Of a stretch of 56,728 nucleotides of DNA, positions 1 through 13,674 are shown piece by piece. The number at the start of each line of letters is the position of its first letter. Positions within the stretch are counted from its first letter, which is position 1. A program made the translations under genes and the position numbers. The DNA comes from a virus (Duplodnaviria > Caudoviricetes), in the IMG/VR virus record IMGVR_UViG_3300008262_000238, positions 1-56,728 of that record; one strand, written 5' to 3'. The notes under the pieces are model-generated. The model had not been told where the DNA came from. It ran no database searches and worked only from the letters and a program-made list of their open reading frames with translations.

Positions 1-120
1 AAAGAATAAGTAGAATTACTGATACTACTAACGAAATTTTTGAGATCTTTGACATAATAATAAATATGTCATAACACACTCTTTTGAAAGTAAATAATAT
101 TTATAAAAAAAATATATATT

Positions 121-729: not shown

Positions 730-732
730 TAA

Positions 733-762
733 AGAAAGGGGGTCAGTGACCCCCATTTTTTA
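733..762. terminator. Bidirectional intrinsic terminator
   Basis: GGGGGTCA-G-TGACCCCC inverted repeat with A/T tails between convergent genes. Confidence 0.7.
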
Positions 763-1509: not shown

Positions 1510-1633
1510 AGGATCTTTGTTTTATGATTACATTACAAAGATATACACTCTCAGGCATTCTGGGTCTCGCACCTGACAATCCATCTTATTTAACCCTTTG
1601 GGGCGATACGGGAACCTAAGTTTATGTGTTTTG

Positions 1634-1707
1634 TGGATCTTGTTGGAATCGAACCAACCACCTACTGATTATGAGTCAGTTGCTCTAACCGAATGAGCTA
1701 AAGGACC
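1634..1707 (-). tRNA. tRNA-Ile2/Met (CAT)
   Basis: Cloverleaf; ACTGA-CTCATAA-TCAGT; TTCGATT T-loop; two acceptor-stem mismatches. Confidence 0.8.
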
Positions 1708-1712
1708 TTATG

Positions 1713-1798
1713 TAGTCAGGACAGGATTCGAACCTGTACTAATCCTGGCATTCACCATATTAAATTAGGAACGTGTTACCAATTACACCACCTGACTA
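1713..1798 (-). ncRNA. tRNA-like element 1 (TAGTCAGG family)
   Basis: AGTCAGG/CCTGACT acceptor, D-arm, ACAGG-TTCGAAT-CCTGT T-arm; oversized loop in place of an anticodon loop. Confidence 0.8.
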
Positions 1799-1800
1799 AT

Positions 1801-1974
1801 TTATTTTACTTGGACATCAACAAGTCCATCTTCAATATCATTTAATAGTTTTCCAATTATGTTAGAAGTAACTATTTTCTTATCACTCTTTGTTGCTTTG
1901 AAATCGGTTATGATTTCCATTCCAACCTCAATCAATCTTACAAGTTGTTCTTCGGTAAGTTCAAATTTCTTCAT
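1801..1974 (-). CDS. Small hypothetical protein (57 aa, MKKFELTEEQL...)
   Basis: ORF fills the gap between tRNA-like elements 2 and 1; A-rich start context. Confidence 0.65.
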   Translation of the reverse strand: MKKFELTEEQLVRLIEVGMEIITDFKATKSDKKIVTSNIIGKLLNDIEDGLVDVQVK

Positions 1975-1990
1975 ATTATTTTCTTTTTAG

Positions 1991-2114
1991 TAGTCAGGAC
2001 AGGACTCGAACCTGTACCAGTTTTACATTATTAAGCGAACCTAATAAATACCATACCCACTTATGACGTGAATCAGTGATGGGGATATGCGTTTACCATT
2101 CTGCCACCTGACTA
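1991..2114 (-). ncRNA. tRNA-like element 2
   Basis: Same acceptor/D/T arms with a ~70-nt unique core. Confidence 0.8.
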
Positions 2115-2372
2115 AATTAACACCCTTATTTATCCAACTCACAGGTGTCTTGGTTGTCCCCACCATAAAAGTAGGTTAGGAATAGTCAGTTCGTCCTCAC
2201 GAGGTCGGGTTGACTTTCAATCTATCTCTGTTGAGATATGTGTTACCACTGTATCAAATACAACTTACTTACCCAGTCGTTCTCCCTATACGACAAAGTA
2301 CGTTCCCCTACGGACATCAATCCGTTTCTCGTCGTGTGGGGCACACTATGGGGTGATGAACCCGCAACGTGA

Positions 2373-2487
2373 TGTCAGGGAGGGATTCGAACCCACAATG
2401 AGCAACCTTACGACTCCATAGAACCCACAAGTTTCTGGGACTATTGGTCTTGGGGACTCGGCACCATGCCTCATTACACTCCTGACA
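2373..2487 (-). ncRNA. tRNA-like element 3 (divergent)
   Basis: TGTCAGG...GGGTTCGAATCCCTCCCTGACA with a long structured core. Confidence 0.6.
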
Positions 2488-2591
2488 AACCCGACTCTTC
2501 AGCATTCTACTCCCCGCACATACATAAATGTAACACGAAATTGTATCTAATTTAACCCTACGTTGGCGGTACGGGTACTGAAGTTTATCGT

Positions 2592-2678
2592 TGGTACTCG
2601 AAGAGGGACTCGAACCCTCACAACCCAATGGTCAACAGAGCTTAAACCTGTCGTGTCTACCAATTCCACCATCCGAGC
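2592..2678 (-). tRNA. tRNA-Leu (TAA)
   Basis: Class II cloverleaf, ACAGG-TTTAAGC-TCTGT, encoded CCA. Confidence 0.9.
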
Positions 2679-2689
2679 ATTTTAAAGAG

Positions 2690-2752
2690 TTATTTTCTCT
2701 TTCTTACCATAAAGATAAATAATATAAACAATACAAACAATATTGGTGTCAT
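2690..2752 (-). CDS. Micro-ORF, 20-aa membrane peptide MTPILFVLFILFIFMVRKRK
   Basis: AAATTAAAATT-ATG start context; hydrophobic helix with basic tail; fills the spacer. Confidence 0.5.
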   Translation of the reverse strand: MTPILFVLFILFIFMVRKRK

Positions 2753-2767
2753 AATTTTAATTTTTAG

Positions 2768-2874
2768 TAGTCAGGACAGGATTCGAACCTGTACGTAGTC
2801 CATCGAGGTTGTATTTATAATCCAAACTACTTAATTATCACCCTGAGCGTCTAACCAATTCCGCCACCTGACTA
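2768..2874 (-). ncRNA. tRNA-like element 4
   Basis: Conserved ends TAGTCAGGTGGCGGAATTGG / TACAGGTTCGAATCCTGTCCTGACTA, unique core. Confidence 0.8.
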
Positions 2875-2876
2875 TA

Positions 2877-2942
2877 TTAATGATTTATCTCACTTAACAT
2901 AAATCCTACAAATATTACAAATATTACTATAATCCACCCCAT
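2877..2942 (-). CDS. Micro-ORF, 21-aa membrane peptide MGWIIVIFVIFVGFMLSEINH
   Basis: AAAAAACA-ATG start context; fills the spacer between elements 5 and 4. Confidence 0.5.
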   Translation of the reverse strand: MGWIIVIFVIFVGFMLSEINH

Positions 2943-2958
2943 TGTTTTTTAATTTTAG

Positions 2959-3051
2959 TAGTCAGGAGAGGAATCGAACCTCTCTACAGGGAGCTACCCA
3001 ACATCCATGATCTTCCATCGGACTCGAACCGACCTTGTACCAACCTGACTA
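2959..3051 (-). ncRNA. tRNA-like element 5 (two T-loop hairpins)
   Basis: TAGTCAGG/CCTGACTA ends; internal TCGG-TTCGAGT-CCGA plus terminal GAGG-TTCGATT-CCTC. Confidence 0.75.
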
Positions 3052-3059
3052 TAAAAAAA

Positions 3060-3576
3060 GATCCTGAATTGTCCCTGCACTAATCAGGAGGATCTTTTAG
3101 TTTTCTTATATTTAGTGTCTCTATATCCCTCACCGTTATAACTAGAATTCGCTAGTCCATAGTAACCATCCCCGGTGGGTTTCTACTTTCACACTCCGTC
3201 TTTATTCTATCTCACCATCAATACGAGTGGAATCAAACTCAGCGTTCAGTGCTGCCCTCAGGACATCTTCACCCTACCCCCAAAGTTACGTGGCGAGTCT
3301 CACTCGGAAGCTGAGTGTATATTGTAGGATTGTCCAGTATTCCTACAACTTGTGGATTGTATTACGATCACTTAAGACCCCTCACCCCCTTAATCCATAA
3401 TGGGGAATCCTTACCTAACCCGTGTAGCCTCCCCCATAGCCTTGAAGCCTTCAAGTCAGGATCACACACCATAACGATCGGATATTTTCGTTAATCGTGG
3501 GGTCTTAAAAGTAGAGTATGACGTATGCTCGTTTTATAGTTGTTTCCATCCGCAAACTCACGGTTCTCTCTACTTT
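3060..3576 (-). ncRNA. Structured non-coding RNA region (several stem-closed modules)
   Basis: GC-enriched, no long ORF; closing stems TTAAGACCCC/GGGGTCTTAA (3372-3508), AAAGTAGAG/CTCTACTTT (3508-3576), GATCCT/AGGATC (3060-3094). Confidence 0.55.
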
Positions 3577-3577
3577 G

Positions 3578-3677
3578 TAGTCAGGACAGGATTCGAACCT
3601 GTGTTGCCCTTAGTTGCTCTTACTTCTCAGTAAAGTGTGGGATCGAACCACACCTGGACCAAAGTTCCACCTGACTA
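3578..3677 (-). ncRNA. tRNA-like element 6 (two T-loop hairpins)
   Basis: Conserved ends; internal GTGTGG-TTCGATC-CCACAC hairpin. Confidence 0.75.
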
Positions 3678-3684
3678 AATATTG

Positions 3685-3824
3685 TTGATAGTGATGGAGT
3701 ACCCGTCTCGCTCCAATCTTAACTGCTTCTTCTGACTTTTATCAGGGCCCCGGCAGAAAGGGTGCTGAATTCCTGATCCACTCTGGATTGTCGACATCCG
3801 TTGAGTGGGGAAAACCACTATCAA
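3685..3824 (-). ncRNA. Candidate structured RNA
   Basis: Closed by TTGATAGTG/CACTATCAA; GC-rich, no ORF. Confidence 0.5.
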
Positions 3825-3835
3825 TATTTTAAAAA

Positions 3836-4062
3836 TGGTAAGACCTTAAGATTTACTTATTCGTGGGTCACCCCATCTTTACTACCTATACCTCGCCTTC
3901 AACATCCGTTCTACCCAAACCATCGTTTATATACCTGTTAACCTCTCGGTTATCTCTGAGTACCTCCTCAACGTTTTTAATCTGATAGGGGCTCCATTTT
4001 GCTCGTTATTTCTAACTCCTCTGTGGGATTCTGCTGATATAGGTCTATCTGCTATCTTACCA
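3836..4062 (-). ncRNA. Candidate structured RNA
   Basis: Closed by TGGTAAGA/TCTTACCA; no long ORF. Confidence 0.45.
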
Positions 4063-4067
4063 ATCTA

Positions 4068-4220
4068 TTATTTCAAAATCATATATTTAACTCCGTTAAC
4101 AATCTTAACTTCGTAATTCCCCTTATTTTGGGATCTCTTTGTTGATTTGGCGGTTTTTGTATTTTTCTCCGCTTCACCAAATTTGGTCTTAATCACCTGA
4201 TTCATTGAAAATCTTTCCAT
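4068..4220 (-). CDS. Small basic protein (50 aa, MERFSMNQ...)
   Basis: Start moved to 4220 because the promoter TTTG(4265-4268)...TAACTTTG(4238-4245) lies in the upstream part of the track ORF. Confidence 0.6.
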   Translation of the reverse strand: MERFSMNQVIKTKFGEAEKNTKTAKSTKRSQNKGNYEVKIVNGVKYMILK

Positions 4221-4237
4221 ATCTCTTATTGTTTCTA

Positions 4238-4268
4238 CAAAGTTATAAAAAATTTTTGATCTGCCAAA
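4238..4268 (-). promoter_or_regulatory. Bacteroidota-type sigmaA promoter
   Basis: -33 TTTG and -7 TAACTTTG; same -7 motif at 1536, 5478, 7330, 7721, 9947, 19249(+), 27456(+), 29266, 29952(+), 36941, 44877(+), 47833, 55372, 56675. Confidence 0.75.
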
Positions 4269-4285
4269 CATTTTTTAACTTTTTG

Positions 4286-4359
4286 TAATCAGGACAGGAT
4301 TTGAACCTGCAATCTCACCCACATACTGTAAGCGCGCGTTACCAATTAGCCACCTGACC
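4286..4359 (-). ncRNA. tRNA-like element 7 (tRNA-sized, non-canonical anticodon arm)
   Basis: GGTCAGG/CCTGATT acceptor; CGCTTAC-AGTAT-GTGGGTG arm lacks U33. Confidence 0.7.
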
Positions 4360-4440
4360 ATGTAGTGGAGCGTCACTTATTTCTAAGTTATCCACTTCGG
4401 TTACGTTATCTTTCGATAAGAGGCTTTACCGAGCCCAAGG

Positions 4441-4539
4441 TAGTCAGGACAGGATTCGAACCTGTATTTAGGGTTATTTAATCGGGTTTCATACCGTACC
4501 TACATCGCGAGTGCGTCTACCAATTCCGCCACCTGACTA
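4441..4539 (-). ncRNA. tRNA-like element 8
   Basis: Conserved ends TAGTCAGGTGGCGGAATTGGTAGACGC / TACAGGTTCGAATCCTGTCCTGACTA. Confidence 0.8.
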
Positions 4540-4668
4540 TTTTTTACTGCTCACGTAGAACACACAATCTTTTTTTCGTTTGCTCTTAAAGACTATCTCT
4601 TTATCTTGCTTAACTTGCCACCATATTCCTATCCATGCATGACATTTCTTTTCTATTGTGTAATTCAT
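4537..4668 (-). CDS. Micro-ORF, 43 aa (MNYTIEKKCHAWIGIWWQVK...)
   Basis: Fills the spacer between elements 9 and 8; its TAG stop is the first three bases of element 8. Confidence 0.55.
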   Translation of the reverse strand: MNYTIEKKCHAWIGIWWQVKQDKEIVFKSKRKKDCVFYVSSKK

Positions 4669-4683
4669 AACTTTAATTTTTTG

Positions 4684-4779
4684 CAGTCAGGACAGGATTC
4701 GAACCTGTATTAACCTATATCCGCTTCCTTATCAGATTATCTACGATTCCTTAATCCTACCAATTCCACCACCTGACTA
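4684..4779 (-). ncRNA. tRNA-like element 9
   Basis: Conserved acceptor/D/T arms, unique core. Confidence 0.8.
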
Positions 4780-4993
4780 TTTCGGGAAGGGAGCGAGCAA
4801 CTCCCTTTTATTCCCTACTAATTTTATTAGTTTGTTTCTAAGATCAAAAACTCTTTTATGTAAAAATGACCTCCTTTTTCTATTCCCGAAACTATTAAAC
4901 GGAGTTGTTATGTTATATAAACTACTTAAAGTCATCGGCTTTATTTAACGTCTAAAACCTGCGTCTAACAACAGACCACAAAAAGACGACTCG

Positions 4994-5068
4994 TATTCCG
5001 TACGGGATTCGAACCCGTGATCTCTTCCGTGAAAGGGAAGTGTCCTAAACCAGCTAGACGAACGGAAC
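4994..5068 (-). tRNA. tRNA-Glu (TTC)
   Basis: CTTCC-CTTTCAC-GGAAG; canonical cloverleaf. Confidence 0.92.
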
Positions 5069-5080
5069 AAAATAATGTTG

Positions 5081-5154
5081 TGGATACATACGGGATTTGA
5101 ACCCGTGACTCCTGATTGCAAGTCAGGTGTGATCGCCAGCTTCACCAATGACCC
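5081..5154 (-). tRNA. tRNA-Ala (TGC)
   Basis: CCTGA-CTTGCAA-TCAGG; G3:U70 present; 1-nt acceptor bulge. Confidence 0.85.
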
Positions 5155-5496
5155 AAAATTACCCCCTCTTGAGATTACAGAGGAGTAGTCGTATCGGTTT
5201 TTCCTATTTCAAAAACCTGATGGGCATCCCCGATAAAAACGTCAATCCTTACTTGGGGGAGAGGAGGATTTTCCAAACCGATTCCCAATGAGTACCACAT
5301 ACACGCGATAGTACCAGCTTCGTTAAGTTTTTATGAAGAAAACTTAAAAACTTCGGGTATCTCTTTCCCATTTTTAAAAAGACACAAAAAATAAGTGTAG
5401 TATTGTCCTCAAAAACCGGAGAAGATGAGGGTTCTTATTTATGTGTCTTATTTAGTATTTATCTTTCATTTAGAATACAAAGATATACTATTTTTT

Positions 5497-6321
5497 TTAA
5501 TTTTCAAAATTTTTCACATCATTAATAATATTCAAAATATCATTTTCATACTCTTTTTTTAATAATGTTTTAACTTTGTATCTTTTTAGTTTATAATTTT
5601 CTATTATTTTTGTCTCCCTTGTTATTTCTTTTAAACTATTTTCATCGTGAAATCTTTCACCATCAATTTCAACACACAAATTCAGTTTTGGGAAAAAGAA
5701 ATCAACATAATAAATATCAAACTTGAATTGTTGTATAAAATCTAAACCTTTGGTAAGTCCGTTTTTTTCTATAAATTCTCTAAAGAATTTTTCGGGATAT
5801 GATTCTTTAATTCCGGCACATAATCTATTAGGATGTAACTCAGGATTTTTTTTAAATCTATCCTTCATATTTTTACTAAGTTTTTCTTTATACAATAAAC
5901 AACTTTTTTGACATTCACTAGAACAATATATGTTGTGATTTTTTTTAACTTTTTTACCACAAACTAAACAATTTGGTCTGACCCTCTTAACATTATTTTC
6001 TTTGTTATAGTTTTTTACACCAATAGTAATTTTATTTTTAATTTCTTCAGATAAAATCCTACCGGTATTATTAAACTTAGCACTACAACTGTTATTACAA
6101 AATCTTCTTTTATCACTTTTATATGATTTAAATGACTTACCACAATTGTAACAACTAACAATTTCTTTAGACTCTTTTTTAAGGTATTTAACACCAAGTC
6201 TAATACATTTATTAGTTATGGATCTAAATGTCATACCCATTAACTCACTTATTTCTTTATAGGTTTTACCTTGTGAAATTAATTTTTTTAATTCGTTTTC
6301 TTTGTTTTCATCCCATTTCAT
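5497..6321 (-). CDS. Putative homing endonuclease (HTH + Zn fingers + DUF559/Vsr-like domain)
   Basis: C-terminal YYVDFFFPKLNLCVEIDGERFH; CxxC...FCxxxC modules; inserted among tRNAs. Confidence 0.75.
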   Translation of the reverse strand: MKWDENKENELKKLISQGKTYKEISELMGMTFRSITNKCIRLGVKYLKKESKEIVSCYNCGKSFKSYKSDKRRFCNNSCSAKFNNTGRILSEEIKNKITIGVKNYNKENNVKRVRPNCLVCGKKVKKNHNIYCSSECQKSCLLYKEKLSKNMKDRFKKNPELHPNRLCAGIKESYPEKFFREFIEKNGLTKGLDFIQQFKFDIYYVDFFFPKLNLCVEIDGERFHDENSLKEITRETKIIENYKLKRYKVKTLLKKEYENDILNIINDVKNFEN

Positions 6322-6386
6322 ATATATATAAATATCTTGAAATGAGTTAAAATTCAGATTTGAACCTAATTTTTAGTAAATTTTTG

Positions 6387-6457
6387 AGCGGATAGATGGT
6401 ACCTCCCCATCTTCCTCAGTTTGGAAGACTGACGCATTAATTTTATGCTATACCCGC
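6387..6457 (-). tRNA. tRNA-Gly (TCC), atypical D/T loops
   Basis: GCGGGTA/TATCCGC-U73; TCAGT-CTTCCAA-ACTGA; T-loop GGAGGTA; D-loop lacks GG. Confidence 0.8.
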
Positions 6458-6676
6458 AAAATTGTGACAACCTTTGGGGTCAGTTGTCACGTTTACGTGA
6501 ATGAGGTGATCAAACCTTCTTATATCACGGGTGTAGATTCGTCTCGTCAATCATCTCTCCCAATACGTTAGTTATTTCTCGTAAAACTAAAAAAGCCGAC
6601 TTGACACCTTGTAACCCCAATTTTAAGTGTGTGTTACCATCCTCTCTCAAGTTGAGCTCTACTGCATGCACTCCCG

Positions 6677-6750
6677 TACCGAAGAAGGGACTTGAACCCA
6701 TAACCTTGACGATATAAGCGTCCTGCTCTCACCTGTTGAGCTACCTCGGC
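6677..6750 (-). tRNA. tRNA-Ile (TAT)
   Basis: GACG-CTTATAT-CGTC anticodon arm; A73; TTCAAGT T-loop. Confidence 0.8.
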
Positions 6751-6833
6751 AAAAATTGTCAGTCTTTCCTGACCGTCACCCCTAACCCACAGGTATTACC
6801 CGTATCGTAGTAAAGCTTGGTTGGCTGTGTTAG

Positions 6834-6906
6834 TAGCAACGCCTTGGAATCGCACCAAGTTAAACCGGCTTATGAGACCGGTGAGATCCTCTACCTCCCG
6901 CCTGCT
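6834..6906 (-). tRNA. tRNA-Met (CAT), atypical
   Basis: CCGGT-CTCATAA-GCCGG; T-loop TGCGATT; acceptor bulge. Confidence 0.7.
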
Positions 6907-6913
6907 ATGTTTG

Positions 6914-7006
6914 TAGATAAGAAAGGATTCGAACCCATAACGCCGTTTTTAACTCGGCATCTCCCCCAAATTGAGGATAGCGTCTACCAATTCCGCCACT
7001 CACCTA
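6914..7006 (-). ncRNA. tRNA-like element 10 (Leu-like D arm, no canonical anticodon arm)
   Basis: AGGTGAG/CTTATCT acceptor, TGGCGGAATTGGTAGACGC, long variable hairpin, GGTTCGAATCC. Confidence 0.65.
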
Positions 7007-7114
7007 TTTTTGTGATTTAGTAGTTAACACACACTCTCGTTTCACTATCTTATGTTAACAGGTTGATACACTTTACGAGTTTCCCGTTTCTTACAACCAC
7101 AATATTTTAAAAAT

Positions 7115-7251
7115 TTGAGATTTATATGTATCAGCATCATTACTCCATCGTTAAATGCTTTATGGCGGATTAGACCATACTAGTCGGAGCAAGCTAGTTC
7201 AATACATACTACCTAAAGTTTTCCCCCTCGTTTTAGTGTAATAAATCTCAA
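7115..7251 (-). ncRNA. Candidate structured RNA
   Basis: Closed by a 10-bp TTGAGATTTA/TAAATCTCAA stem, immediately after a boxA-like element. Confidence 0.45.
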
Positions 7252-7254
7252 CAA

Positions 7255-7360
7255 TTTCAAAGAACTTTCCCTTTTGACACGGGAGTAGGATCACCATCTC
7301 TAATCTTCCTACCCCCGTTGTTTGTCTTACAAAGATATGTAATGTTTTTTAATCTGCCAA
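7255..7360 (-). promoter_or_regulatory. Promoter + hairpin + boxA-like element
   Basis: TTGG...TATCTTTG, then hairpin ACGGGGGTAGGA/TCCTACTCCCGT, then GTTCTTTGAAA. Confidence 0.6.
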
Positions 7361-7361
7361 A

Positions 7362-7571
7362 TTAATTGTGGATCATTTCTAAAATTTCTTCAACAGTTTC
7401 TGTTACTGAAAATCCCCCGTTGTTGTGAGTTGTAACACCAACACGAGTATGTTCTTTTTCAGTAACTCTTCCGTATTCCACTTTTTCATCAACAGGGTAA
7501 AAGTGTCCGATATGTTCAACATTCAAAACAATGATGTTCCCGTTTTTTGCTGTTAATTTGATAAATTTCAT
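7362..7571 (-). CDS. Small FlbD-like protein
   Basis: MKFIKLT..NG..IVLN..HI ... V.ETVEEI pattern resembles the FlbD family. Confidence 0.55.
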   Translation of the reverse strand: MKFIKLTAKNGNIIVLNVEHIGHFYPVDEKVEYGRVTEKEHTRVGVTTHNNGGFSVTETVEEILEMIHN

Positions 7572-7594
7572 ATAATTTTATTTTTAATCGTTTG

Positions 7595-7678
7595 TACTCG
7601 GAGAGGGACTCGAACCCTCACTCCCGTCTGGGAACGGCAGCTTAAATGCAGCGTGTCTACCAATTCCACCATCCGAGC
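7595..7678 (-). tRNA. tRNA-Leu (TAA), second copy
   Basis: Class II cloverleaf, loop TTTAAGC; one anticodon-stem mismatch. Confidence 0.85.
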
Positions 7679-7684
7679 ATTTCA

Positions 7685-7701
7685 CCAATATGTCAAAGAA
7701 C
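7685..7701 (-). promoter_or_regulatory. boxA-like antitermination element
   Basis: GTTCTTTGACATATTGG, identical 17-mer at 12180-12196. Confidence 0.65.
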
Positions 7702-7756
7702 CTTTATCGTTTCTGCCTTACAAATGTAAGTAATCTTTTTTAATTGCACAAGTCCT

Positions 7757-7793
7757 GAAAACAAAAAACCCACCTCTTTTTGGAGATGGGTTT
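7757..7793 (-). terminator. Attenuator terminator of leader 2
   Basis: AAACCCATCTC-CAAAAA-GAGGTGGGTTT + TTTGTTTT. Confidence 0.85.
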
Positions 7794-7815
7794 AAAATTT
7801 TTTATGTATATAATA

Positions 7816-7884
7816 TTACACCCTCTCCTTGAAAGTTGTCTCAGCTAAATCGCCCCCTATCAATGATATGTGTAAATTTTTCAT
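7816..7884 (-). CDS. Leader peptide 2 MKNLHISLIGGDLAETTFKERV (attenuator)
   Basis: 22-aa ORF after ATATTTATA motif; 3' codons GGAGA-GGGT complementary to the terminator 5' arm ACCC-A-TCTCC. Confidence 0.8.
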   Translation of the reverse strand: MKNLHISLIGGDLAETTFKERV

Positions 7885-7943
7885 TTGCGTTTTTATTATT
7901 TTGTTATAAATATATAATACTTTTCAAAAGTGTCAAGTTTTTT

Positions 7944-8264
7944 TTAAAAATCTTCATCATAATCACCAAGAACCTCATAAAGGTAATCCTCATAATTCAA
8001 TGAAATATAGTCCGCTAATAACGTGAACAAGTCATCTTGAAAGTCACCCATAATATCTTTAGCCAAAGCCATGGCCTTTTTTCCCATAGTTGCATCATCA
8101 TAATCACCAAGATCGTAAAGAGATTCCCTAACCTCCTTAAACACATCATCCAATGTAATGGATATTCTCATACCTTCCATTTTATCTTCTTCGTTATCTT
8201 CTTTAATAACTCGTTTAACAATCCTTGTTAAATCCGATTCTGTTAATTTAGTTACTCTTTTCAT
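7944..8264 (-). CDS. Acidic protein with LTESDL leader
   Basis: MKRVTKLTESDLTRIVKRVIKE N-terminus. Confidence 0.8.
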   Translation of the reverse strand: MKRVTKLTESDLTRIVKRVIKEDNEEDKMEGMRISITLDDVFKEVRESLYDLGDYDDATMGKKAMALAKDIMGDFQDDLFTLLADYISLNYEDYLYEVLGDYDEDF

Positions 8265-8318
8265 AATTTATATTTATTTTATAAATATTTTATGTTTTTT
8301 AAATGTGTCAAGTTTTTT

Positions 8319-8699
8319 TTAAAATTCTCCTTCACCCTCAATTTTACCCCAAACGTTTTTATATTCCGGGTTTTGTAAGAATAAATCGGCTTCAGTTGAT
8401 TCATTCTCCAAATCACTGATATAATCTTTTAACAAATCAATTACTTGTCTGATTCTTTCCTGTCTTTGTCTTGGACTAACTTTTCTTGATAGTTGGTGTT
8501 CTCTTGATAAATACCCGTATTCACCAGGATCACTAAAAACATTACCTTCATCTTTTCTAAAGAAGATGTCATTTAGTTTATCCCTTAAATTTAGATCTTT
8601 AGACTCTTTTTTATTGGATCTAAATCCCTCACCTTCTCTAATCACTTTTTTAACAATCCTTGTTAAATCCGATTCGGTTAATTTTATGACTTTTTTCAT
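8319..8699 (-). CDS. Protein with LTESDL leader
   Basis: True start MKKVIKLTESDL at 8699; the track extension overlaps tRNA-Leu. Confidence 0.8.
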   Translation of the reverse strand: MKKVIKLTESDLTRIVKKVIREGEGFRSNKKESKDLNLRDKLNDIFFRKDEGNVFSDPGEYGYLSREHQLSRKVSPRQRQERIRQVIDLLKDYISDLENESTEADLFLQNPEYKNVWGKIEGEGEF

Positions 8700-8732
8700 A
8701 ATAATAAATATATCATTATTTGAAAATGTTTG

Positions 8733-8813
8733 TACCCCCGGAGAGATTCGAACTCTCACACCTCTCGGCATCAGATCCTAAATCTGACGTGTCTACCATT
8801 CCACCACGAGGGT
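8733..8813 (-). tRNA. tRNA-Leu (TAG)
   Basis: TCAGA-TTTAGGA-TCTGA; class II. Confidence 0.92.
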
Positions 8814-8822
8814 ATTTTGTTG

Positions 8823-8894
8823 AGCTCAGGGTGGGATTTGAACCCACATACCAAGGTTTTGCAGACCTGGACTTTACCCATCAGACACCTGAGC
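8823..8894 (-). tRNA. tRNA-Cys (GCA)
   Basis: AGGT-CTGCAAA-ACCT; U73. Confidence 0.85.
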
Positions 8895-8896
8895 AA

Positions 8897-9352
8897 TTAG
8901 CGGCAGTGGTGATCTGCCTCCCTTGTTGCGATTTGGTTGTTGGGCTTAATATTTGTTTTAAAACCTAACGAGTTTGCCCATCCGACCGTAGGTGAAACCA
9001 GTCGTGAACTGAAGTGTTTTTCTTCAGCATTGTAATCCAAATCAATCTCCACCTTTACATTAACTTTTTTTGTTAACCATTCCGCAACTTGTATTGAATA
9101 ATCAGCCTCATTCCATAATCTTGTCCATTTATCTTTGATCTTTTTTATCTTTTCCTTATGGTAGATGTAATGAACACCACGATTACCATATCTATAAGCA
9201 ATTGCCGTTACATATACGGTACTTCTTCTATGATTTTGAGAGTCAGTACCAATATGGATCTCAACGTATGGACATTCCCTTAATATTTCAAGCGTGTGAG
9301 ATACAACATCGGTAACCACCTCACCAGAAACCTTTCTAAATATTTTTTTCAT
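8897..9352 (-). CDS. RNase H-like YkuK (DUF458) family protein
   Basis: IHIGTDSQ, VEIDLDYN and ADH motifs. Confidence 0.75.
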   Translation of the reverse strand: MKKIFRKVSGEVVTDVVSHTLEILRECPYVEIHIGTDSQNHRRSTVYVTAIAYRYGNRGVHYIYHKEKIKKIKDKWTRLWNEADYSIQVAEWLTKKVNVKVEIDLDYNAEEKHFSSRLVSPTVGWANSLGFKTNIKPNNQIATREADHHCR

Positions 9353-9366
9353 CTCACTACTTTTTG

Positions 9367-9442
9367 CGGAACCATAGGGAGTCGAACCCTAACTTTTGGA
9401 TTTTCAGTCCAACGTGACACACCATACTTACACCATAGTTCC
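9367..9442 (-). tRNA. tRNA-Phe (GAA)
   Basis: TTGGA-CTGAAAA-TCCAA. Confidence 0.85.
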
Positions 9443-9444
9443 TT

Positions 9445-9942
9445 TTATTTAATTTCAAATGCACAACGCATTGGCCTTTTCAATTTTTGGGAATCCTCAA
9501 AGTTCCCAATAACAACACCGTCTTTGATCGTAAAGGCATGACATTTAACCAACACAATGAAAGTCCCCTTTGGATATTTCTTTACAAATGTACCAACGGT
9601 CATTTTTCTATTAACTATTTCATTTTTAACTTTAACAGGATAATCCAAAGAATTAATCATATAGTCATTTTTTCTTTCACCAACAGGATGAACTTTTTTA
9701 CCATTTACCCTAATTCCATTATCCGACATTTTAACAAGTTTCATTGGAGTACCAAATGTTCCCCTTCTTGGTTTTCTCCCAAATTCTTCGGCAACATACT
9801 TATGAGCATAATCATATGAAATTTCAAATGAAGATGCAAATGCTCTTACAACACAATCACTTGTTTCCCATTTAGCAATCTCAGAGTCATTATAACCTTT
9901 GATTGCAGTTCCTGTTGATTCGTACGGTAGTTTGTTTTTCAT
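9445..9942 (-). CDS. Phage protein with DCVVRA...H motif (possible papain-like Cys-His fold)
   Basis: SDCVVRAFA and KCHAFTIKDG; promoter at 9947-9954 supports start at 9942. Confidence 0.6.
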   Translation of the reverse strand: MKNKLPYESTGTAIKGYNDSEIAKWETSDCVVRAFASSFEISYDYAHKYVAEEFGRKPRRGTFGTPMKLVKMSDNGIRVNGKKVHPVGERKNDYMINSLDYPVKVKNEIVNRKMTVGTFVKKYPKGTFIVLVKCHAFTIKDGVVIGNFEDSQKLKRPMRCAFEIK

Positions 9943-9989
9943 ATCACAAAGATACAAAAACTTTTTTGATCGGCAAAATTAATTTTTAG

Positions 9990-10060
9990 CACGCGCCGTT
10001 AGAATCGAACTAACCCACCGAGGTTTTGGAGACCTGGCCGACACCTTGTCTGTGACGCGC
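9990..10060 (-). tRNA. tRNA-Trp (CCA)
   Basis: AGGT-CTCCAAA-ACCT; G73. Confidence 0.85.
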
Positions 10061-10071
10061 TTATATTATTG

Positions 10072-10144
10072 TACCCCCACAGAGATTCAAACTCCGATCC
10101 CACCCTTAGAAGGGGTGTGTCCTATTCAGTTGGACGATGGGGGC
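10072..10144 (-). tRNA. tRNA-Arg (TCT)
   Basis: CACCC-CTTCTAA-GGGTG. Confidence 0.88.
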
Positions 10145-10149
10145 AATTG

Positions 10150-10222
10150 TACCCTCAAAGAGATTCAAACTCCTATCTCTGGATCCGTAGTCCAGGGTTT
10201 TATTCAGTTAAACTATGTGGGC
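10150..10222 (-). tRNA. tRNA-Arg (ACG)
   Basis: CTGGA-CTACGGA-TCCAG. Confidence 0.88.
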
Positions 10223-10413
10223 AATTAAAGAATTTTGGTCAACCACTCGCATCCCACCAATCTCTTGTATCAAACTTTTTGTAGTCCAAACGATTCCTTT
10301 ATTGAACTTAATCATTTTGGTAATATCTCCTACGACTCATTCTCAACTCACTTGCCTAAGCCTTGTAACCAGGATATGAGCCCGGCTCGGACACCTGTCC
10401 TATCGGTATGTTG

Positions 10414-10502
10414 AGGAAAGCAGTGGTAACGATCCACAATCGGTTTCTCACCGATCACATTGTTTAGCAAACAAGTCCCGTCGCCTTCAGGGATTACTTT
10501 CC
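10414..10502 (-). tRNA. tRNA-Ser (GCT)
   Basis: TTGT-TTGCTAA-ACAA; long variable arm; T-loop ATCGTTA. Confidence 0.8.
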
Positions 10503-10507
10503 ATTTG

Positions 10508-10580
10508 TGCTCATCACCGGTTACGATCCGATTCTCTCCACGATATCAGCGTGGTGCTTTCCCGATTAAGCTAGATGAGC
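10508..10580 (-). tRNA. tRNA-Ile (GAT)
   Basis: CCACG-CTGATAT-CGTGG; T-loop ATCGTAA. Confidence 0.85.
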
Positions 10581-10583
10581 CTG

Positions 10584-11117
10584 TTATAATAGTTTTTCGT
10601 GTATCTCAGCATGACAATTTGAGCACACTAATAAACATTTATCCACTTCTTCTTTTAATCTGTCAAATGACAAACTCTTTCCTGAAATTGTGAAGTCTTT
10701 TTCATTTGGATTTTTATGGTGGAATTGTAGTGCGGTCAGACATTTATTATAACCACATATTTCACACTTCCCTCCCTTGTATTCAATCAATTTCTTTTTA
10801 GTTCTCTTTCTCCATGATATAACAGATTGAGACCCACTAATCTTTTTAACCCTAACAACACTTTTAACGTGTTTTTTAACAGTTTCAAAAGACCTACCCG
10901 TAATCCTTACAACTTTTTTTAAGGAACCCACTTCATCGTATAATTTTTGAAGTTGTTCTTTTTCTTCTTCTGTTACTTTTTGATTGTTGTTGCCTAATTT
11001 ATGTATCTGACAATGATACGACACTGTTGACATTGCGCAACCTAAAATTTTTGTAATTTCTTTGTAGGTTTTTCCTTCTTTCCTCAAAGATATAATTTTT
11101 TCCGAATACCTTTCCAT
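10584..11117 (-). CDS. HNH homing endonuclease with N-terminal HTH
   Basis: CEICGY...LQFHH...CSNCHAEIH. Confidence 0.85.
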   Translation of the reverse strand: MERYSEKIISLRKEGKTYKEITKILGCAMSTVSYHCQIHKLGNNNQKVTEEEKEQLQKLYDEVGSLKKVVRITGRSFETVKKHVKSVVRVKKISGSQSVISWRKRTKKKLIEYKGGKCEICGYNKCLTALQFHHKNPNEKDFTISGKSLSFDRLKEEVDKCLLVCSNCHAEIHEKLL

Positions 11118-11167
11118 AACATTAACATTTTATATTAATAAATATCTGATAGTTCGGAAAAAATAAG

Positions 11168-11255
11168 CTGATGGGGTGGGATTCGAACCCACGGTGGAGA
11201 AAATTCTCGTCGGATTAACAGTCCGATGCGTTCGGCCAACTACGCGAACCCATCA
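11168..11255 (-). tRNA. tRNA-Asn (GTT) with long variable arm
   Basis: TCGGA-CTGTTAA-TCCGA; GAGAA-TT-TTCTC variable hairpin; G73. Confidence 0.85.
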
Positions 11256-11264
11256 ATTTTTTTG

Positions 11265-11347
11265 TGGGAGAGGAGGGACTTGAACCCCCACGTCCTCACG
11301 GAAACGGTTTTACAGACCGCCGAGCCAACCAATTGCTCAACACTCCC
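11265..11347 (-). tRNA. tRNA-Tyr (GTA)
   Basis: GCGGT-CTGTAAA-ACCGT; class II. Confidence 0.9.
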
Positions 11348-11490
11348 AAATTTAGGAAATCAGAAGATGGTTGCGTGGACATCTGATTTTACGATTGGCG
11401 TTACTTTGGTGTATATCTCCCAACTCCGATGATACTGACCGATATACACTCTCGTGTCATTAGTATCACCCTTCCCCAATCAACCTATAG

Positions 11491-11561
11491 TACCCCAAGA
11501 TGGATTTGAACCACCACCGATAGTATGTAACACTATCACGCTCCCATTACGCCATTGAGGT
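11491..11561 (-). tRNA. tRNA-Val (TAC)
   Basis: ATAGT-GTTACAT-ACTAT. Confidence 0.85.
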
Positions 11562-11630
11562 GTTTTAGTTTTTCAGAACAAAAGTAACCATTTTTTGGTA
11601 ACTATCACCCCTTTTTACTAAATTTTTTTG

Positions 11631-11705
11631 TGACCCCGGTGAGACTTGAACTCACGACCCCTCCGTTAAAAGCGGAGTGCTCTAAACCAACTGAGCTACG
11701 AGATC
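11631..11705 (-). tRNA. tRNA-Lys (TTT)
   Basis: CTCCG-CTTTTAA-CGGAG. Confidence 0.92.
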
Positions 11706-11723
11706 TTCTGTTTGTCATACTTG

Positions 11724-11912
11724 TCACTTTCCATAAGACATTAGTTTTTGATTGTTTATTTTTATTTCTGTTTCTACCCTTTTTAGTTCTTCACTTAAAT
11801 CCCCACGGTAGGATGGGTCTTTACTAATTTTGGATAAACTTAAGTAATAATTGTTTAAACCCTCAAGTCTTCCTTTAATTGCAATTTTTTCACATTCTTC
11901 GTTTGTTACCAT
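11724..11912 (-). CDS. Small coiled-coil hypothetical protein (62 aa)
   Basis: Start MVTNEE at 11912; the track extension overlaps tRNA-Pro. Confidence 0.55.
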   Translation of the reverse strand: MVTNEECEKIAIKGRLEGLNNYYLSLSKISKDPSYRGDLSEELKRVETEIKINNQKLMSYGK

Positions 11913-11927
11913 TTTTTTAAATTTTAG

Positions 11928-12000
11928 TAGGGTAGACAGGGGTCGAACCTGCATCGTCCACGTCCCAAACGTGGTGACTTACCAATTAGTCAACTACCCT
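11928..12000 (-). tRNA. tRNA-Pro (TGG)
   Basis: CCACG-TTTGGGA-CGTGG. Confidence 0.88.
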
Positions 12001-12006
12001 ATGTTG

Positions 12007-12090
12007 AGGAAGCCTGAGGTGTCGATCCCCATACCTTTCAGTACCGCCCGTTTTCAAGACGGGGTTGCAAGCCGTTGCAATTAGACTTCC
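12007..12090 (-). tRNA. tRNA-Ser (TGA)
   Basis: CCCGT-CTTGAAA-ACGGG; long variable arm; T-loop ATCGACA. Confidence 0.82.
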
Positions 12091-12099
12091 TTTTTGTTG

Positions 12100-12171
12100 A
12101 TCTCCCCCGAGGGTTCGAACCTCAATTCCATGGACCAAAACCATGTGTCCTGCCAGTTAGACGAGGGGAGA
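12100..12171 (-). tRNA. tRNA-Gln (TTG)
   Basis: CATGG-TTTTGGT-CCATG. Confidence 0.9.
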
Positions 12172-12179
12172 ATTTAAGG

Positions 12180-12196
12180 CCAATATGTCAAAGAAC
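12180..12196 (-). promoter_or_regulatory. boxA-like antitermination element
   Basis: GTTCTTTGACATATTGG between tRNA-Thr and tRNA-Gln. Confidence 0.65.
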
Positions 12197-12210
12197 ATTT
12201 TCTTTTTTTG

Positions 12211-12282
12211 AGGTCTCTGTCGGAACTGACCCGACAACTCAACTTTACAAGAGTCGTATTTTTCCTGTTAAACTAAGAGACC
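12211..12282 (-). tRNA. tRNA-Thr (TGT)
   Basis: CGACT-CTTGTAA-AGTTG; T-loop GTCAGTT. Confidence 0.82.
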
Positions 12283-12287
12283 AATGT

Positions 12288-12320
12288 AAAACAAAAAACC
12301 CGAGATTTTGTGTCTCGGGT
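12288..12320 (-). terminator. Attenuator terminator of leader 1
   Basis: ACCCGAGA-CACAAAA-TCTCGGGT + TTTTTGTTTT directly before tRNA-Thr. Confidence 0.85.
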
Positions 12321-12351
12321 CTTTCATTTTTATTTTATATTTGATGATACG

Positions 12352-12462
12352 TTATACCATACTATTAAATGAAAGACACCGAAGACGCTGAAGCGTAATA
12401 TACGACTTGACCCAATTCTGACACGGGTTACTAAAGTTCATATGTTTCATTGTTGTTTTCAT
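12352..12462 (-). CDS. Leader peptide 1 MKTTMKHMNFSNPCQNWVKSYITLQRLRCLSFNSMV (attenuator)
   Basis: 36-aa ORF after ATATTTATA; contains TCGG-T-GTCTTTCATTT, complementary to AAATGAAAGAC-CCGA overlapping the terminator 5' arm. Confidence 0.85.
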   Translation of the reverse strand: MKTTMKHMNFSNPCQNWVKSYITLQRLRCLSFNSMV

Positions 12463-12544
12463 CTTGGTTATAAATATATGTATTTTACAAAAAGTTTTAA
12501 ATTCTTTTACAAATTTAGTAATATTTTTTTATTTGACAAGCATT

Positions 12545-12658
12545 TTATTGATTTTTTTCATAAAATTCTTCTTGATCCTCTTTTAATTTATGTAAATAAA
12601 CATAAAATTCTTCAGAGTTTATAAATTCATTATGAATTATTTCTAAAATTTCGTCCAT
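12545..12658 (-). CDS. Small acidic protein (37 aa, MDEILEIIHNEF...)
   Basis: ORF directly after a TAACTTTG motif. Confidence 0.4.
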   Translation of the reverse strand: MDEILEIIHNEFINSEEFYVYLHKLKEDQEEFYEKNQ

Positions 12659-12739
12659 GTAACAAAGTTAAATATTTTTTTAATAAAAGACAACTTTTGT
12701 AGTTTAATTGGATATTTATATAATATAATCCATTAGACT

Positions 12740-13261
12740 ATGAAAAAAGAAGAATTAGAAAACTTGATAAATGATGGTAAGTCATTGAACCAAATTAGTA
12801 AGGAAATAGGTAAGTCTTTAACATCTGTTAGGTATTGGGCAAAAAAACACAAAATACCTTTTGAAACTAAAAATTTCTCAAATCAAGGGATAAAGGATTA
12901 TGGGGAATCAAGATTATGCCCAAGATGTAAAAAATCATGTTCTATTGATCAATTTTATGATAGGAGAGGTAAAAAAAATAGTTCAGTATATTGTAAAAAA
13001 TGTACCACTGAACAGGTTGTGGAACGAACTCAGAAATTGAAACAAGAAATGGTAAACTATAAAGGGGGTTGTTGTGAATTATGTGGGTATGACAAATATA
13101 TAGGTGCGTTAGATTTTCATCATATAAACCCAAATGAAAAAGATTTTACAATTGCAAAAGTTAGACAATATAAATTTGATGAAGTAATAAAGGAAGAATT
13201 GGATAAATGTATGTTAGTATGTTCTAATTGTCACCGTGAGATACACGGTGGATTAAAGTAG
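12740..13261 (+). CDS. HNH homing endonuclease with N-terminal HTH and Zn finger
   Basis: CELCGY...LDFHH...CSNCHREIH; paralog of 10584-11117. Confidence 0.85.
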   Translation: MKKEELENLINDGKSLNQISKEIGKSLTSVRYWAKKHKIPFETKNFSNQGIKDYGESRLCPRCKKSCSIDQFYDRRGKKNSSVYCKKCTTEQVVERTQKLKQEMVNYKGGCCELCGYDKYIGALDFHHINPNEKDFTIAKVRQYKFDEVIKEELDKCMLVCSNCHREIHGGLK

Positions 13262-13335
13262 TACACCCGCCAGGATTCAAACCTGGAATCTACTCATTAG
13301 AAGTGAGTTGCATTGTTCAATTATGCTACGGGTGC
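13262..13335 (-). tRNA. tRNA-Arg (TCT), second copy
   Basis: ACTCA-CTTCTAA-TGAGT. Confidence 0.88.
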
Positions 13336-13341
13336 ATTTTA

Positions 13342-13527
13342 TCAGATCTTCTTTACCTCATAAGTATGACCTGAATCTGAATTAGTTTGAAAGATGTCTT
13401 TCATTTTTTCAGCATCTTCTTCTGTTTCAAATTCCCAAACTTCATTATCACTATTTAGAAGGATAACAGGTAGTCTTTTTGTGGGGATTGAACTTGATAC
13501 TTTTACGTGTTTAACTATTACATACAT
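13342..13527 (-). CDS. Hypothetical protein (61 aa)
   Basis: ORF track, plausible composition. Confidence 0.65.
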   Translation of the reverse strand: MYVIVKHVKVSSSIPTKRLPVILLNSDNEVWEFETEEDAEKMKDIFQTNSDSGHTYEVKKI

Positions 13528-13674
13528 ATGACAATTATAATAACTTATTTTTGATCTGTCAATAGGTATAAAACAAAATGGGGATTACTCCCCACTTTGC
13601 TAGATAATAAACACCTCCCTTTCTTTTGATGGTTTATCCTCACCCAACAACTACGTCAGATAAGTTTCATCGGG

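Follow-up and report, generated by a model that had tools for sequence, protein, structure and literature searches.

Leader 2 is a short candidate transcription attenuator on the minus strand of the IMG/VR virus record IMGVR_UViG_3300008262_000238 (Duplodnaviria; Caudoviricetes), at the head of the second of two blocks of transfer RNA (tRNA) genes. The window that we analysed is this whole record (56,728 nucleotides (nt), 56.7 kb; G+C content 30.8%), which holds about 30 tRNA genes, all on the minus strand and spanning positions 13335 to 1633. Read along that strand from 7936 to 7594, the leader region presents a promoter-like site, an untranslated stretch, a short open reading frame (ORF), a spacer, a hairpin with a U-rich tail, a -7 promoter motif, a boxA-like motif and the gene for tRNA-Leu(taa). 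The promoter-like site, the 22-codon ORF and the terminator with its U-tract had been described in an initial annotation of the sequence, and we found that both the letters and the positions given for them agree.

The promoter-like site consists of a -35-like hexamer (7931-7936) and a -10-like hexamer that continues into an AT-rich 10-mer (7905-7914); the two hexamers lie 16 nt apart and match the consensus at 11 of 12 positions. Because consensus promoter-like sites are not enriched as a class (48 found, 51.2 expected), our promoter call is based on conservation: 99 of 115 distinct upstream regions have the -35-like hexamer at a fixed spacing, among them 67 of the 83 metagenome versions in which the search pattern had left it free. 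The 8-nt core of the AT-rich motif recurs ahead of many genes of the phage, with 33 copies in the window compared with 15.7 ± 4.2 in shuffled sequence (0 of 100 shuffles reached 33). Next comes an A-rich 5' untranslated stretch of 20 nt (7885-7904), which lacks a Shine-Dalgarno sequence and is unpaired in all minimum-energy folds. The leader ORF (7816-7884), recognized by its conceptual translation and its conserved frame, starts with an ATG at 7884 and runs for 22 codons to a stop codon at 7818-7816. Codons 4-12 (7849-7875; Leu His Ile Ser Leu Ile Gly Gly Asp) are the proposed sensor; the core marked in the initial annotation reached codon 15, at 7840.

Four regions of the transcript could pair with one another. 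Region 1, a candidate protector strand seen in minimum-energy folds, covers codons 4-5 (7870-7875) and has its partner at 7821-7816. Region 2, the 5' strand of the predicted antiterminator, lies in the last codons (7820-7828) and ends 1 nt before the stop codon; it is supported by folds, covariation and duplex energy. An AT-rich spacer of 22 nt on the same strand separates the ORF from the hairpin, whose 5' arm is region 3 (7782-7793, from folds and alignment pairing; positions 7791-7782 are the antiterminator partner) and whose 3' arm is region 4 (7766-7776, from a terminator scan and the fold). The terminator scan also defines the U-rich tail (7756-7765). Downstream of the terminator, and likewise as annotated, the sequence contains a host-type -7 promoter motif (7721-7728), putatively of the Bacteroidota type. 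A boxA-like 17-mer follows at 7701-7685, singled out by its recurrence ahead of tRNAs; its assignment as boxA is putative. The first gene that would be gated is tRNA-Leu(taa) (7594-7678, from tRNA scans).

The rest of block 2 (1633-7005, minus strand) consists of an odd tRNA (6913-7005), a CAU tRNA (6829-6907), tRNA-Ile(tat), Gly(tcc), Ala(tgc), Glu(ttc), Leu(tag), tRNA-like paralogues, Leu(taa) and Met(cat); the block as a whole thus holds Leu(taa) twice, Ile(tat), two CAU tRNAs, a weak Gly(tcc), Ala(tgc), Glu(ttc), Leu(tag) and the odd paralogues. All of the tRNAs that had been named downstream of the leader (two Leu-UAA, Ile-UAU, CAU, Gly, Ala and Glu) were recovered, Gly only weakly: the Gly(tcc) gene at approximately 6387-6457 was seen only by Rfam (45.8 bits) and by low-threshold ARAGORN. 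A scan of the whole window for an AT-rich promoter motif, an ORF no longer than 60 codons and a terminator returned two modules only, each heading a tRNA block. The other, leader 1, is at 12476 on the minus strand; its 36-codon ORF (12462-12352) and its terminator (approximately 12320-12298) stand directly before tRNA-Thr and the rest of the first block.

Frame and helix conservation among relatives

To collect relatives, we used the neighbouring 106-residue protein, which led to two IMG/VR contigs, one of them complete at 304 kb, and two sequence patterns. The first pattern (promoter plus ORF start) matched 46 viral stretches, and a looser one matched at least 118 metagenome stretches; both fixed the first 17 nt of the ORF, where conservation is accordingly uninformative. 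Among the resulting 166 instances, 13 were cut by contig ends, two (L075 and L111) were dropped as chance matches in other genes, and two natural variants (L148 and L038) were set aside; L046 had been dropped from the earlier viral set, again as a chance match in another gene. After these exclusions, the set yielded 111 distinct versions of the stretch from -22 to +150 and an alignment of 99 distinct versions. The module is thus conserved in more than 160 loci of uncultured phages, on contigs of up to about 300 kb.

The reading frame of the leader is kept, and its peptide is not. One class of the ORF has 22 codons and, like the window's copy, ends in UAA; there are also 24-codon classes, which mostly end in UGA, and a 25-codon form, the lengths being 69, 75 and 78 nt. 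Not one of the 99 distinct versions has a broken frame, the stop-loss variant L148 having been set aside beforehand, and the three sites of insertion or deletion within the ORF are each of 3 nt. Behind the stop codon, by comparison, the spacer carries insertions and deletions of 1-5 nt while its length is held at 20-25 nt. Variation within the ORF is not concentrated at third codon positions (minor-allele sums at the three positions of 0.72, 0.70 and 1.13 in the 22-codon class, and of 1.93, 3.25 and 2.36 in the 24-codon class). The order of residues differs between the classes while the composition is kept, and in all sequence classes the core of the leader is made of L, I, G, D, A and E. With neither a third-position bias nor a conserved residue order, the ORF does not behave as a small-protein gene under purifying selection. 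Its variation is the pattern expected of an ORF that would need to be translated but whose peptide sequence would be of little importance. The two variants set aside are natural mutants that can serve for comparison: L148 has no stop codon, and its ORF runs on through the terminator arm; L038 (about 443-614) has cleanly lost the terminator hairpin and has kept the leader ORF and the boxA-like motif.

The terminator stem (7793-7766) has 11 pairs, 5 of them G-C, with a loop of 6 nt and the U-rich tail at 7765-7756. Among 15 terminator-like sites in positions 1-15000 (shuffled sequence gives 8.6 ± 2.9 sites) it ranks as the strongest, and it is present in 101 of 103 distinct relatives. In the predicted fold of the full stretch, the terminator forms (-30.7 kcal/mol, z = -3.5). 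When the 3' arm of the terminator is omitted, the minimum-energy fold instead pairs 7828-7820 with 7791-7782, so that the pairing of the last codons with the terminator arm, as claimed in the initial annotation, is real. Taken alone, this antiterminator fold is unremarkable in the window (z = -1.71; 11 of 200 shuffles fold equally well). Across the 99 aligned sequences, in contrast, 96.3% of its cells are paired; none of 500 column shuffles reached that figure, and sliding the partner by 1-3 columns gave at most 78.6%. RNAalifold, run blind on the same alignment, returned the same helix as its consensus. Three of the eight antiterminator pairs change on both sides. Pair A is G-C in 47 sequences, U-A in 44, U-G in 1 and unpaired in 7, a split that largely follows the two sequence classes and may count as one or two events; pair B is G-C in 85, G-U in 8 and A-U in 3; and pair C shows a single G-C in place of A-U. 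The duplexes of the two classes (-16.3 and -14.1 kcal/mol) are also more stable than those of shuffled strands (about -6 ± 2.6 kcal/mol), with only fractions of 0.002 and 0.006 of the shuffles doing as well. A ribosome that had reached the stop codon would cover the antiterminator strand, which ends one base ahead of that codon.

A further helix, 1:2, joins codons 3-9 to the end of the ORF and appears in the folds of all classes even though their sequences differ; it reaches significance in the 24-codon class alone, where 2.6% of shuffles do as well. The conserved His codon sits inside this candidate helix, a place that may explain its conservation. An Rfam cmscan of positions 1-15000 at E <= 0.1, which covers the T-box and the Thr, Leu, His and Trp leaders, found no family within 7757-7915.

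What follows the terminator also bears on its role. We compared 103 distinct downstream stretches of 400 nt, and in 65 of them the first gene is tRNA-Leu(taa). Among these 65 relatives, 33 have a gap of only 25-39 nt that contains the boxA-like motif but no -7 promoter motif, so that tRNA-Leu could hardly be transcribed there except through the terminator. A tRNA follows the boxA-like motif at a distance of 10-18 nt in 78 of 172 contexts. Because the motif often stands about 20 nt behind a -7 motif, we place it in the 5' leader of the tRNA precursor.

Leader codons and downstream tRNAs

We asked how the codons of the leaders relate to the tRNAs behind them, using for the window a simulation of random ORFs drawn from its codon usage. 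Ten of the 21 codons of the window leader are read by its own block (P = 0.04). Within codons 4-15, a stretch picked after seeing the data, 10 of 12 residues are L, I, G, D, A or E, compared with 39.4% in long ORFs (binomial 0.0024). All three Leu codons are UUR and both Ile codons are AUA.

The choice of synonymous codons tracks the block. In the leader-2 family, UUR codons number 208 against 2 CUN, and AUA codons 100 against 34 AUY (genome usage: UUR 70.6%, AUA 37.3%), whereas in the leader-1 family CUN outnumbers UUR by 18 to 2 and AUY outnumbers AUA by 21 to 1; the events in these family counts are not independent of one another. Similarly, own-block and other-block codons are distributed differently between the two leaders, both in the window (Fisher test, 8.6e-4) and in the 304-kb relative (1.4e-3). 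Leader 1 covers 15 of the 16 tRNA species of block 1 in the window (P = 0.003) and 15 of 15 in the 304-kb relative (P = 5e-5). The window's leader 1 contains no A, D, E or G, for which the chance is 7e-5.

Among 49 distinct loci with at least 3 kb of sequence downstream, the block behind leader 2 most often includes Gly(tcc) (44 loci), Glu (43), Leu(taa) (41), Asp(gtc) (39) and a CAU tRNA (32); Ile(tat) (19), Arg(tct) (10) and Ala (7) are rarer. The tRNA and Rfam scans agree with the initial annotation that the window has no tRNA for the leader's His and Asp codons. Relatives supply one of the two: Asp is in their block in 39 of the 49 loci, and His is not, the 304-kb relative carrying its His(gtg) in block 1. 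When the leader-2 family was divided into eight sub-types with different blocks, 57 of 61 species were covered (exact permutation P = 0.047), and where the block includes a Thr(tgt), Leu(tag), Phe or Asn tRNA, the sub-type has gained the matching codons.

We also assessed the match across leader families. A search with the boxA-like motif added approximately 100 viral loci of other lineages, and all of the collected DNA was then scanned for modules in which an ORF of 15-45 codons is followed within 60 nt by a strong hairpin with a U-tract, and this hairpin within 135 nt by a tRNA. The scan yielded 154 modules with 80 distinct peptides. We kept the 67 peptides whose block had at least five tRNA species and dropped the 13 with fewer; a block was taken to end at the next strong terminator, at a gap of more than 2.5 kb or at the end of the locus. 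Clustering at 45% identity gave 17 clusters, each represented by the member with the largest block. For these representatives and their own blocks, the summed coverage was 15.64, and 216 of the 240 block tRNAs had an in-frame cognate codon under liberal wobble rules (210 under strict rules). Random ORFs drawn from the codon usage of each locus reached 11.5 ± 0.46 (0 of 200,000 reached the observed value; combined P 7e-15), and short ORFs of the same length from the same loci reached 11.4 ± 0.44 (0 of 100,000). Leaders dealt to the blocks of other clusters scored 13.1 ± 0.5, and again 0 of 100,000 permutations reached the observed value. The other two frames of the same leader DNA covered only 161 and 152 of the 240 tRNAs. 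If the clusters share deep ancestry, as they may, then the permutation result is in part co-inheritance; the frame and random-ORF controls are free of that weakness.

The distance from the stop codon to the terminator arm is 24-36 nt in 14 of the 17 clusters. The pairing of the ORF with that arm beats 95% of shuffles in 8 of the 17 clusters and is borderline (0.053) in 2, a result that weakens or complicates the attenuator reading. The distant or unrelated modules found ahead of tRNA arrays in other phage contigs are L171, L183, L190, L195, L209, L213, L215, L222, L230, L245, L247, L249, L254, L262 and L263; several leaders of 25-42 codons cover their whole block (10 of 10, 14 of 14 and 20 of 20 tRNAs). 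The leader of L254, whose block is limited by a contig end, predicted Asn, Ile(tat) and Arg(tct) tRNAs, and all three are present in its relative L247. The L254 contig itself ends 190 nt after its last tRNA, and a pattern search for longer relatives matched L254 alone.

Surroundings of the module

The promoter region of the leader (7936-7884) is nearly a repeat of the promoter (8311-8264) of the adjacent upstream 106-codon gene, on the same strand. This gene (8264-7944) and the one before it (8771-8319) have a common conserved N-terminal motif. Other protein genes are scattered among the tRNAs on the minus strand (6321-5497, 9352-8897 and 11117-10584), and the proteins include a DUF559 endonuclease-like protein, an RNase H-like protein (PF04308) and a helix-turn-helix protein; these genes may represent homing-endonuclease-type cargo of the tRNA region. 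A Pfam scan of ten neighbouring ORFs found no polymerase, and the sole sigma-family match was a sub-cut-off Sigma-70 region 4 among the helix-turn-helix matches of a 177-residue protein.

Within block 2, tRNA-like paralogues on the minus strand (1712-1797, 1991-2113, 2768-2873, 4286-4359 and 4441-4538) have near-identical acceptor and T arms. Their anticodon regions are divergent, often with insertions, and ARAGORN calls them odd or intron-bearing tRNAs. The boxA-like motif occurs in the window, on the minus strand, at 12196-12180, 7701-7685 and 7265-7255, 10-18 nt ahead of tRNA-Gln, tRNA-Leu and an apparently structured stretch at about 7250-7045, respectively; in many phage loci it recurs ahead of tRNAs and of other non-coding stretches. 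Metatranscriptome contigs from one run, which were kept as contigs, map to 6759-6812, 7021-7093, 7224-7366, 8228-8264 and 8996-9130, and they leave the leader uncovered and are silent on it either way. The RNA-library contig at 7224-7366 (143 nt, with adapter-like flanks) is the sole exact one on the stretch and spans the end of a 69-codon ORF together with the boxA-like variant; it may be a trace of an expressed non-coding RNA, although a single contig makes nothing firm.

A distant BLAST of positions 6500-9500 against a phage collection returned tRNA matches only and no close cultured relative. Similarly, megablast of two other leader-bearing loci matched single tRNAs only, and the Flavobacterium phage that megablast reached has four tRNAs and no visible leader or terminator module.

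The proposed switch, its rivals and known systems

We propose that leader 2, standing before the second tRNA block, acts as a ribosome-mediated (leader-peptide) transcription attenuator and senses the supply of the tRNAs that it gates. The conserved promoter, mini-ORF, antiterminator and terminator, the tRNA block behind them and constraints of the attenuator type support the attenuator interpretation of the initial annotation, and we put the probability of our reading at about 0.6. Under this proposal, a transcript would start at the promoter-like site (7936-7905) and carry the 22-codon ORF. If the ORF were read quickly, then the ribosome at the stop codon (7818-7816) would sit on the last codons (7828-7820); with these masked, the 5' arm of the terminator would pair with its 3' arm, and transcription would stop at 7766-7756. 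If, instead, the ribosome were delayed anywhere from codon 4 to about codon 14 (Leu-UUR, Ile-AUA, Gly, Asp, Ala and Glu), then the last codons would stay free to pair with the 5' arm of the terminator. With the antiterminator thus formed, the polymerase would go on to transcribe the boxA-like motif, tRNA-Leu(taa) and the remaining genes of block 2. As most sensor codons are read by downstream tRNAs, synthesis of the block's tRNAs would rise when they are scarce and shut off when they are plentiful: the phage probably raises its output of block-2 tRNAs when too few are available to ribosomes. Translation of the ORF in vivo, the choice between the folds by stalling and tRNA supply as the signal are all inferred. 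Beyond this locus, phage tRNA arrays may commonly be autoregulated by such 'sampler' leaders, which would carry at least one in-frame codon for nearly every tRNA of the block and open the terminator upon a stall at any of them. We consider the chances of this generalization evenly balanced, and the same standing applies to its corollary, that the two leaders of this phage would split the genetic code between them, down to the isoacceptor boxes (Leu CUN and UUR, Ile AUY and AUA).

A number of observations weigh against leader 2 as a gauge of its own tRNAs, and several of them lend weight to other explanations. The initial annotation had matched the leader codons to the remaining tRNAs. In the window alone this match is weak: five of six block species are covered (P = 0.28), by codons that are common ones, and it is in the leader-2 family (57 of 61) and, strongly, across the 17 families that the match stands. 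In leader 2 of the 304-kb relative, 7 of 7 species are covered (P = 0.067) and 12 of 23 codons are read by the block behind it (P = 0.065). Roughly half of the codons in the window leader (10 of 21) have no reader among the tRNAs of block 2. Codons are also kept where the matching tRNA gene is absent: the window leader has an Asp codon without an Asp tRNA in the window, the leader of the 304-kb relative has Ala codons and no Ala tRNA was found there, and a His tRNA never occurs in the block behind leader 2. Such mismatches would be natural if the leader gauged translation capacity in general (ribosome supply, host shut-off, or tRNA-cleaving or ribosome-targeting defence), with the same switch opening the block upon any slowing and the mixed codons being merely a fair sample of phage codons. 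A bacterial tRNA array that is induced by translational stress, via a repressor protein, is described in a published study (PMC10272220). Under a general gauge, though, leaders should not fit their own blocks better than others, as they do (0 of 100,000 permutations; P = 0.047 in the leader-2 family), and synonymous codon choice should not track the isoacceptors of the block. We thus regard a general gauge as unlikely; it would in any case be a variant of the same mechanism, whereas the other rivals leave both the frame constraint and the frame-specific codon match unexplained.

The remaining objections concern the RNA and its transcription. The terminator could simply end the transcript of the upstream 106-codon gene (8264-7944), which has no terminator of its own. 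The putative -7 promoter at 7728-7721 would give the window an attenuator-independent route to the tRNAs, and a -7 motif also lies in the 81-114-nt gap of 32 of the 65 tRNA-Leu-first relatives, the window's type; where such a promoter is present, gating would be confined to transcripts that start at the upstream promoter or in genes farther upstream. The 1:2 helix is weak in the window's 22-codon class (-9.0 compared with -6.5 ± 2.2 kcal/mol; 13% of shuffles equal it). The antiterminator of the window has a G.A mismatch or one-base bulge at the covarying pair, the 7 of 99 versions unpaired there add to this, most switches within a class break the pair rather than restore it, and the G-C/U-A split may reflect one or two events. 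In leader 1, only the window's subtype (2 of 13 variants) shows strong pairing of ORF and terminator, and the other 11 variants do no better than shuffles; a cruder definition of the arm gives 0.23 for the leader 1 of the window, a figure that depends on where the arm is cut. The upstream gene, the downstream promoter and the weak 1:2 helix would all suit a constitutive, partly leaky terminator or insulator of the protein-gene transcript, with a short ORF of no regulatory effect. That explanation is quite improbable, as it does not account for a frame kept through 3-nt insertions and deletions only, a conserved promoter of the leader's own, compensatory antiterminator pairs, an in-frame codon match of 216 against 161 and 152 of 240, or the 33 relatives in which tRNA-Leu has no other visible promoter. 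L038, which keeps its ORF despite the loss of the terminator, would better suit a stand-alone small gene, either a 22-24-residue micropeptide or a small RNA of about 130 nt, unrelated to tRNA control, and so would the conservation of the unit as a block in more than 160 loci while the sequence that follows it varies. Yet its variation is unlike that of a protein under purifying selection, with residue order rearranged between the classes and composition kept; a small RNA would need no open frame; and the module always heads a tRNA block and matches no Rfam family at E <= 0.1. A gene of this kind is, in our judgement, very improbable. Finally, alternative pairing by itself is silent on what selects the fold, and a bound factor could do so in place of the ribosome, be it an RNA-binding protein of phage or host or, in T-box fashion, a tRNA. 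With no match to the T-box or any other known leader family, with a leader that is too short for a T-box, and with a frame constraint and a frame-specific codon match that point to translation, this hardly seems credible.

If the sampler reading is true, then leader 2 would be the first attenuator in which the sensed molecules are the products of the gated genes, and it would offer a direct read-out of tRNA supply during infection. Why phages carry tRNAs, and at what point they put them to use, is debated, with compensation for codon usage, decay of host tRNAs and escape from tRNA-cleaving defences all proposed. A leader that gauges the decoding of codons read by the tRNAs of the phage itself would show that demand regulates their supply, and it would provide a simple genetic handle on these ideas, as the leader codons, the stop position and the terminator arms can each be changed. 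It would also extend classical attenuation to RNA genes, to phages and to hosts of the Bacteroidota type, in which translation starts without a Shine-Dalgarno sequence. The design is widespread, with more than 160 loci in the leader-2 family alone and 17 leader clusters overall, and it suggests a rule for annotation: at the head of tRNA arrays, a short ORF should be sought together with a terminator 24-36 nt behind it. Among the papers that full-text literature searches listed, none dealt with the control of tRNA genes, phage or cellular, by a leader peptide or an attenuator. The mechanism that we propose is thus textbook attenuation; its target, the sampling logic and the phage setting are not in print as far as these searches reach.

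Attenuators of amino-acid operons include the multivalent leaders ilvGMEDA, ilvBN and thr of E. coli and the single-amino-acid leaders trp, his, leu and pheA. Leader 2 resembles them in its promoter, its short leader, a stop codon placed so that a finishing ribosome would mask the partner of the terminator arm, and a terminator before the genes to be regulated; as in the ilv and thr leaders, several aminoacyl-tRNAs would be read out at once. Unlike in these systems, the genes regulated here would be tRNA genes rather than those of biosynthetic enzymes, and in place of tandem runs of a single codon, each of about six to seven tRNAs is represented by one to four codons. In addition, leader 2 belongs to a phage, apparently of Bacteroidota, shows no sequence or Rfam-family kinship to these leaders, and has a 1:2 helix that is weak in the window's class. 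The attenuator of pheST, with its pheM leader, controls an aminoacyl-tRNA synthetase and senses the charged tRNA of one amino acid. It shares with our proposal leader-peptide attenuation of a gene of the translation apparatus, and thus feedback on decoding capacity; here, in contrast, the product of the gated genes would be the sensed molecule itself. T-box riboswitches bind uncharged tRNA directly and do not need translation. The choice between terminator and antiterminator would depend on tRNA in both cases; unlike a T-box, leader 2 has no Rfam match and has an ORF under frame constraint.

The boxA-like motif resembles the boxA/Nus antitermination site of rrn operons in that it appears to lie in the transcribed leader just before stable-RNA genes. 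Unlike rrn boxA, it would be an accessory element downstream of the attenuator rather than the switch, and Nus binding is putative. The nearest published system that the literature searches turned up, the long tRNA array (trn operon) of Anabaena on a cyanobacterial megaplasmid, is induced by stress and is under the control of the DNA-binding repressor TrcR (PMC10272220). A term search of a second paper on the Anabaena tRNA array (PMC8421152) matched none of 'attenuat', 'leader peptide' and 'terminator'. Unlike the arrangement proposed here, no leader peptide or terminator switch is described in the available part of the trn study (PMC10272220); like it, the Anabaena array is an accessory set of tRNA genes that is switched on when translation is impaired (PMC10272220).

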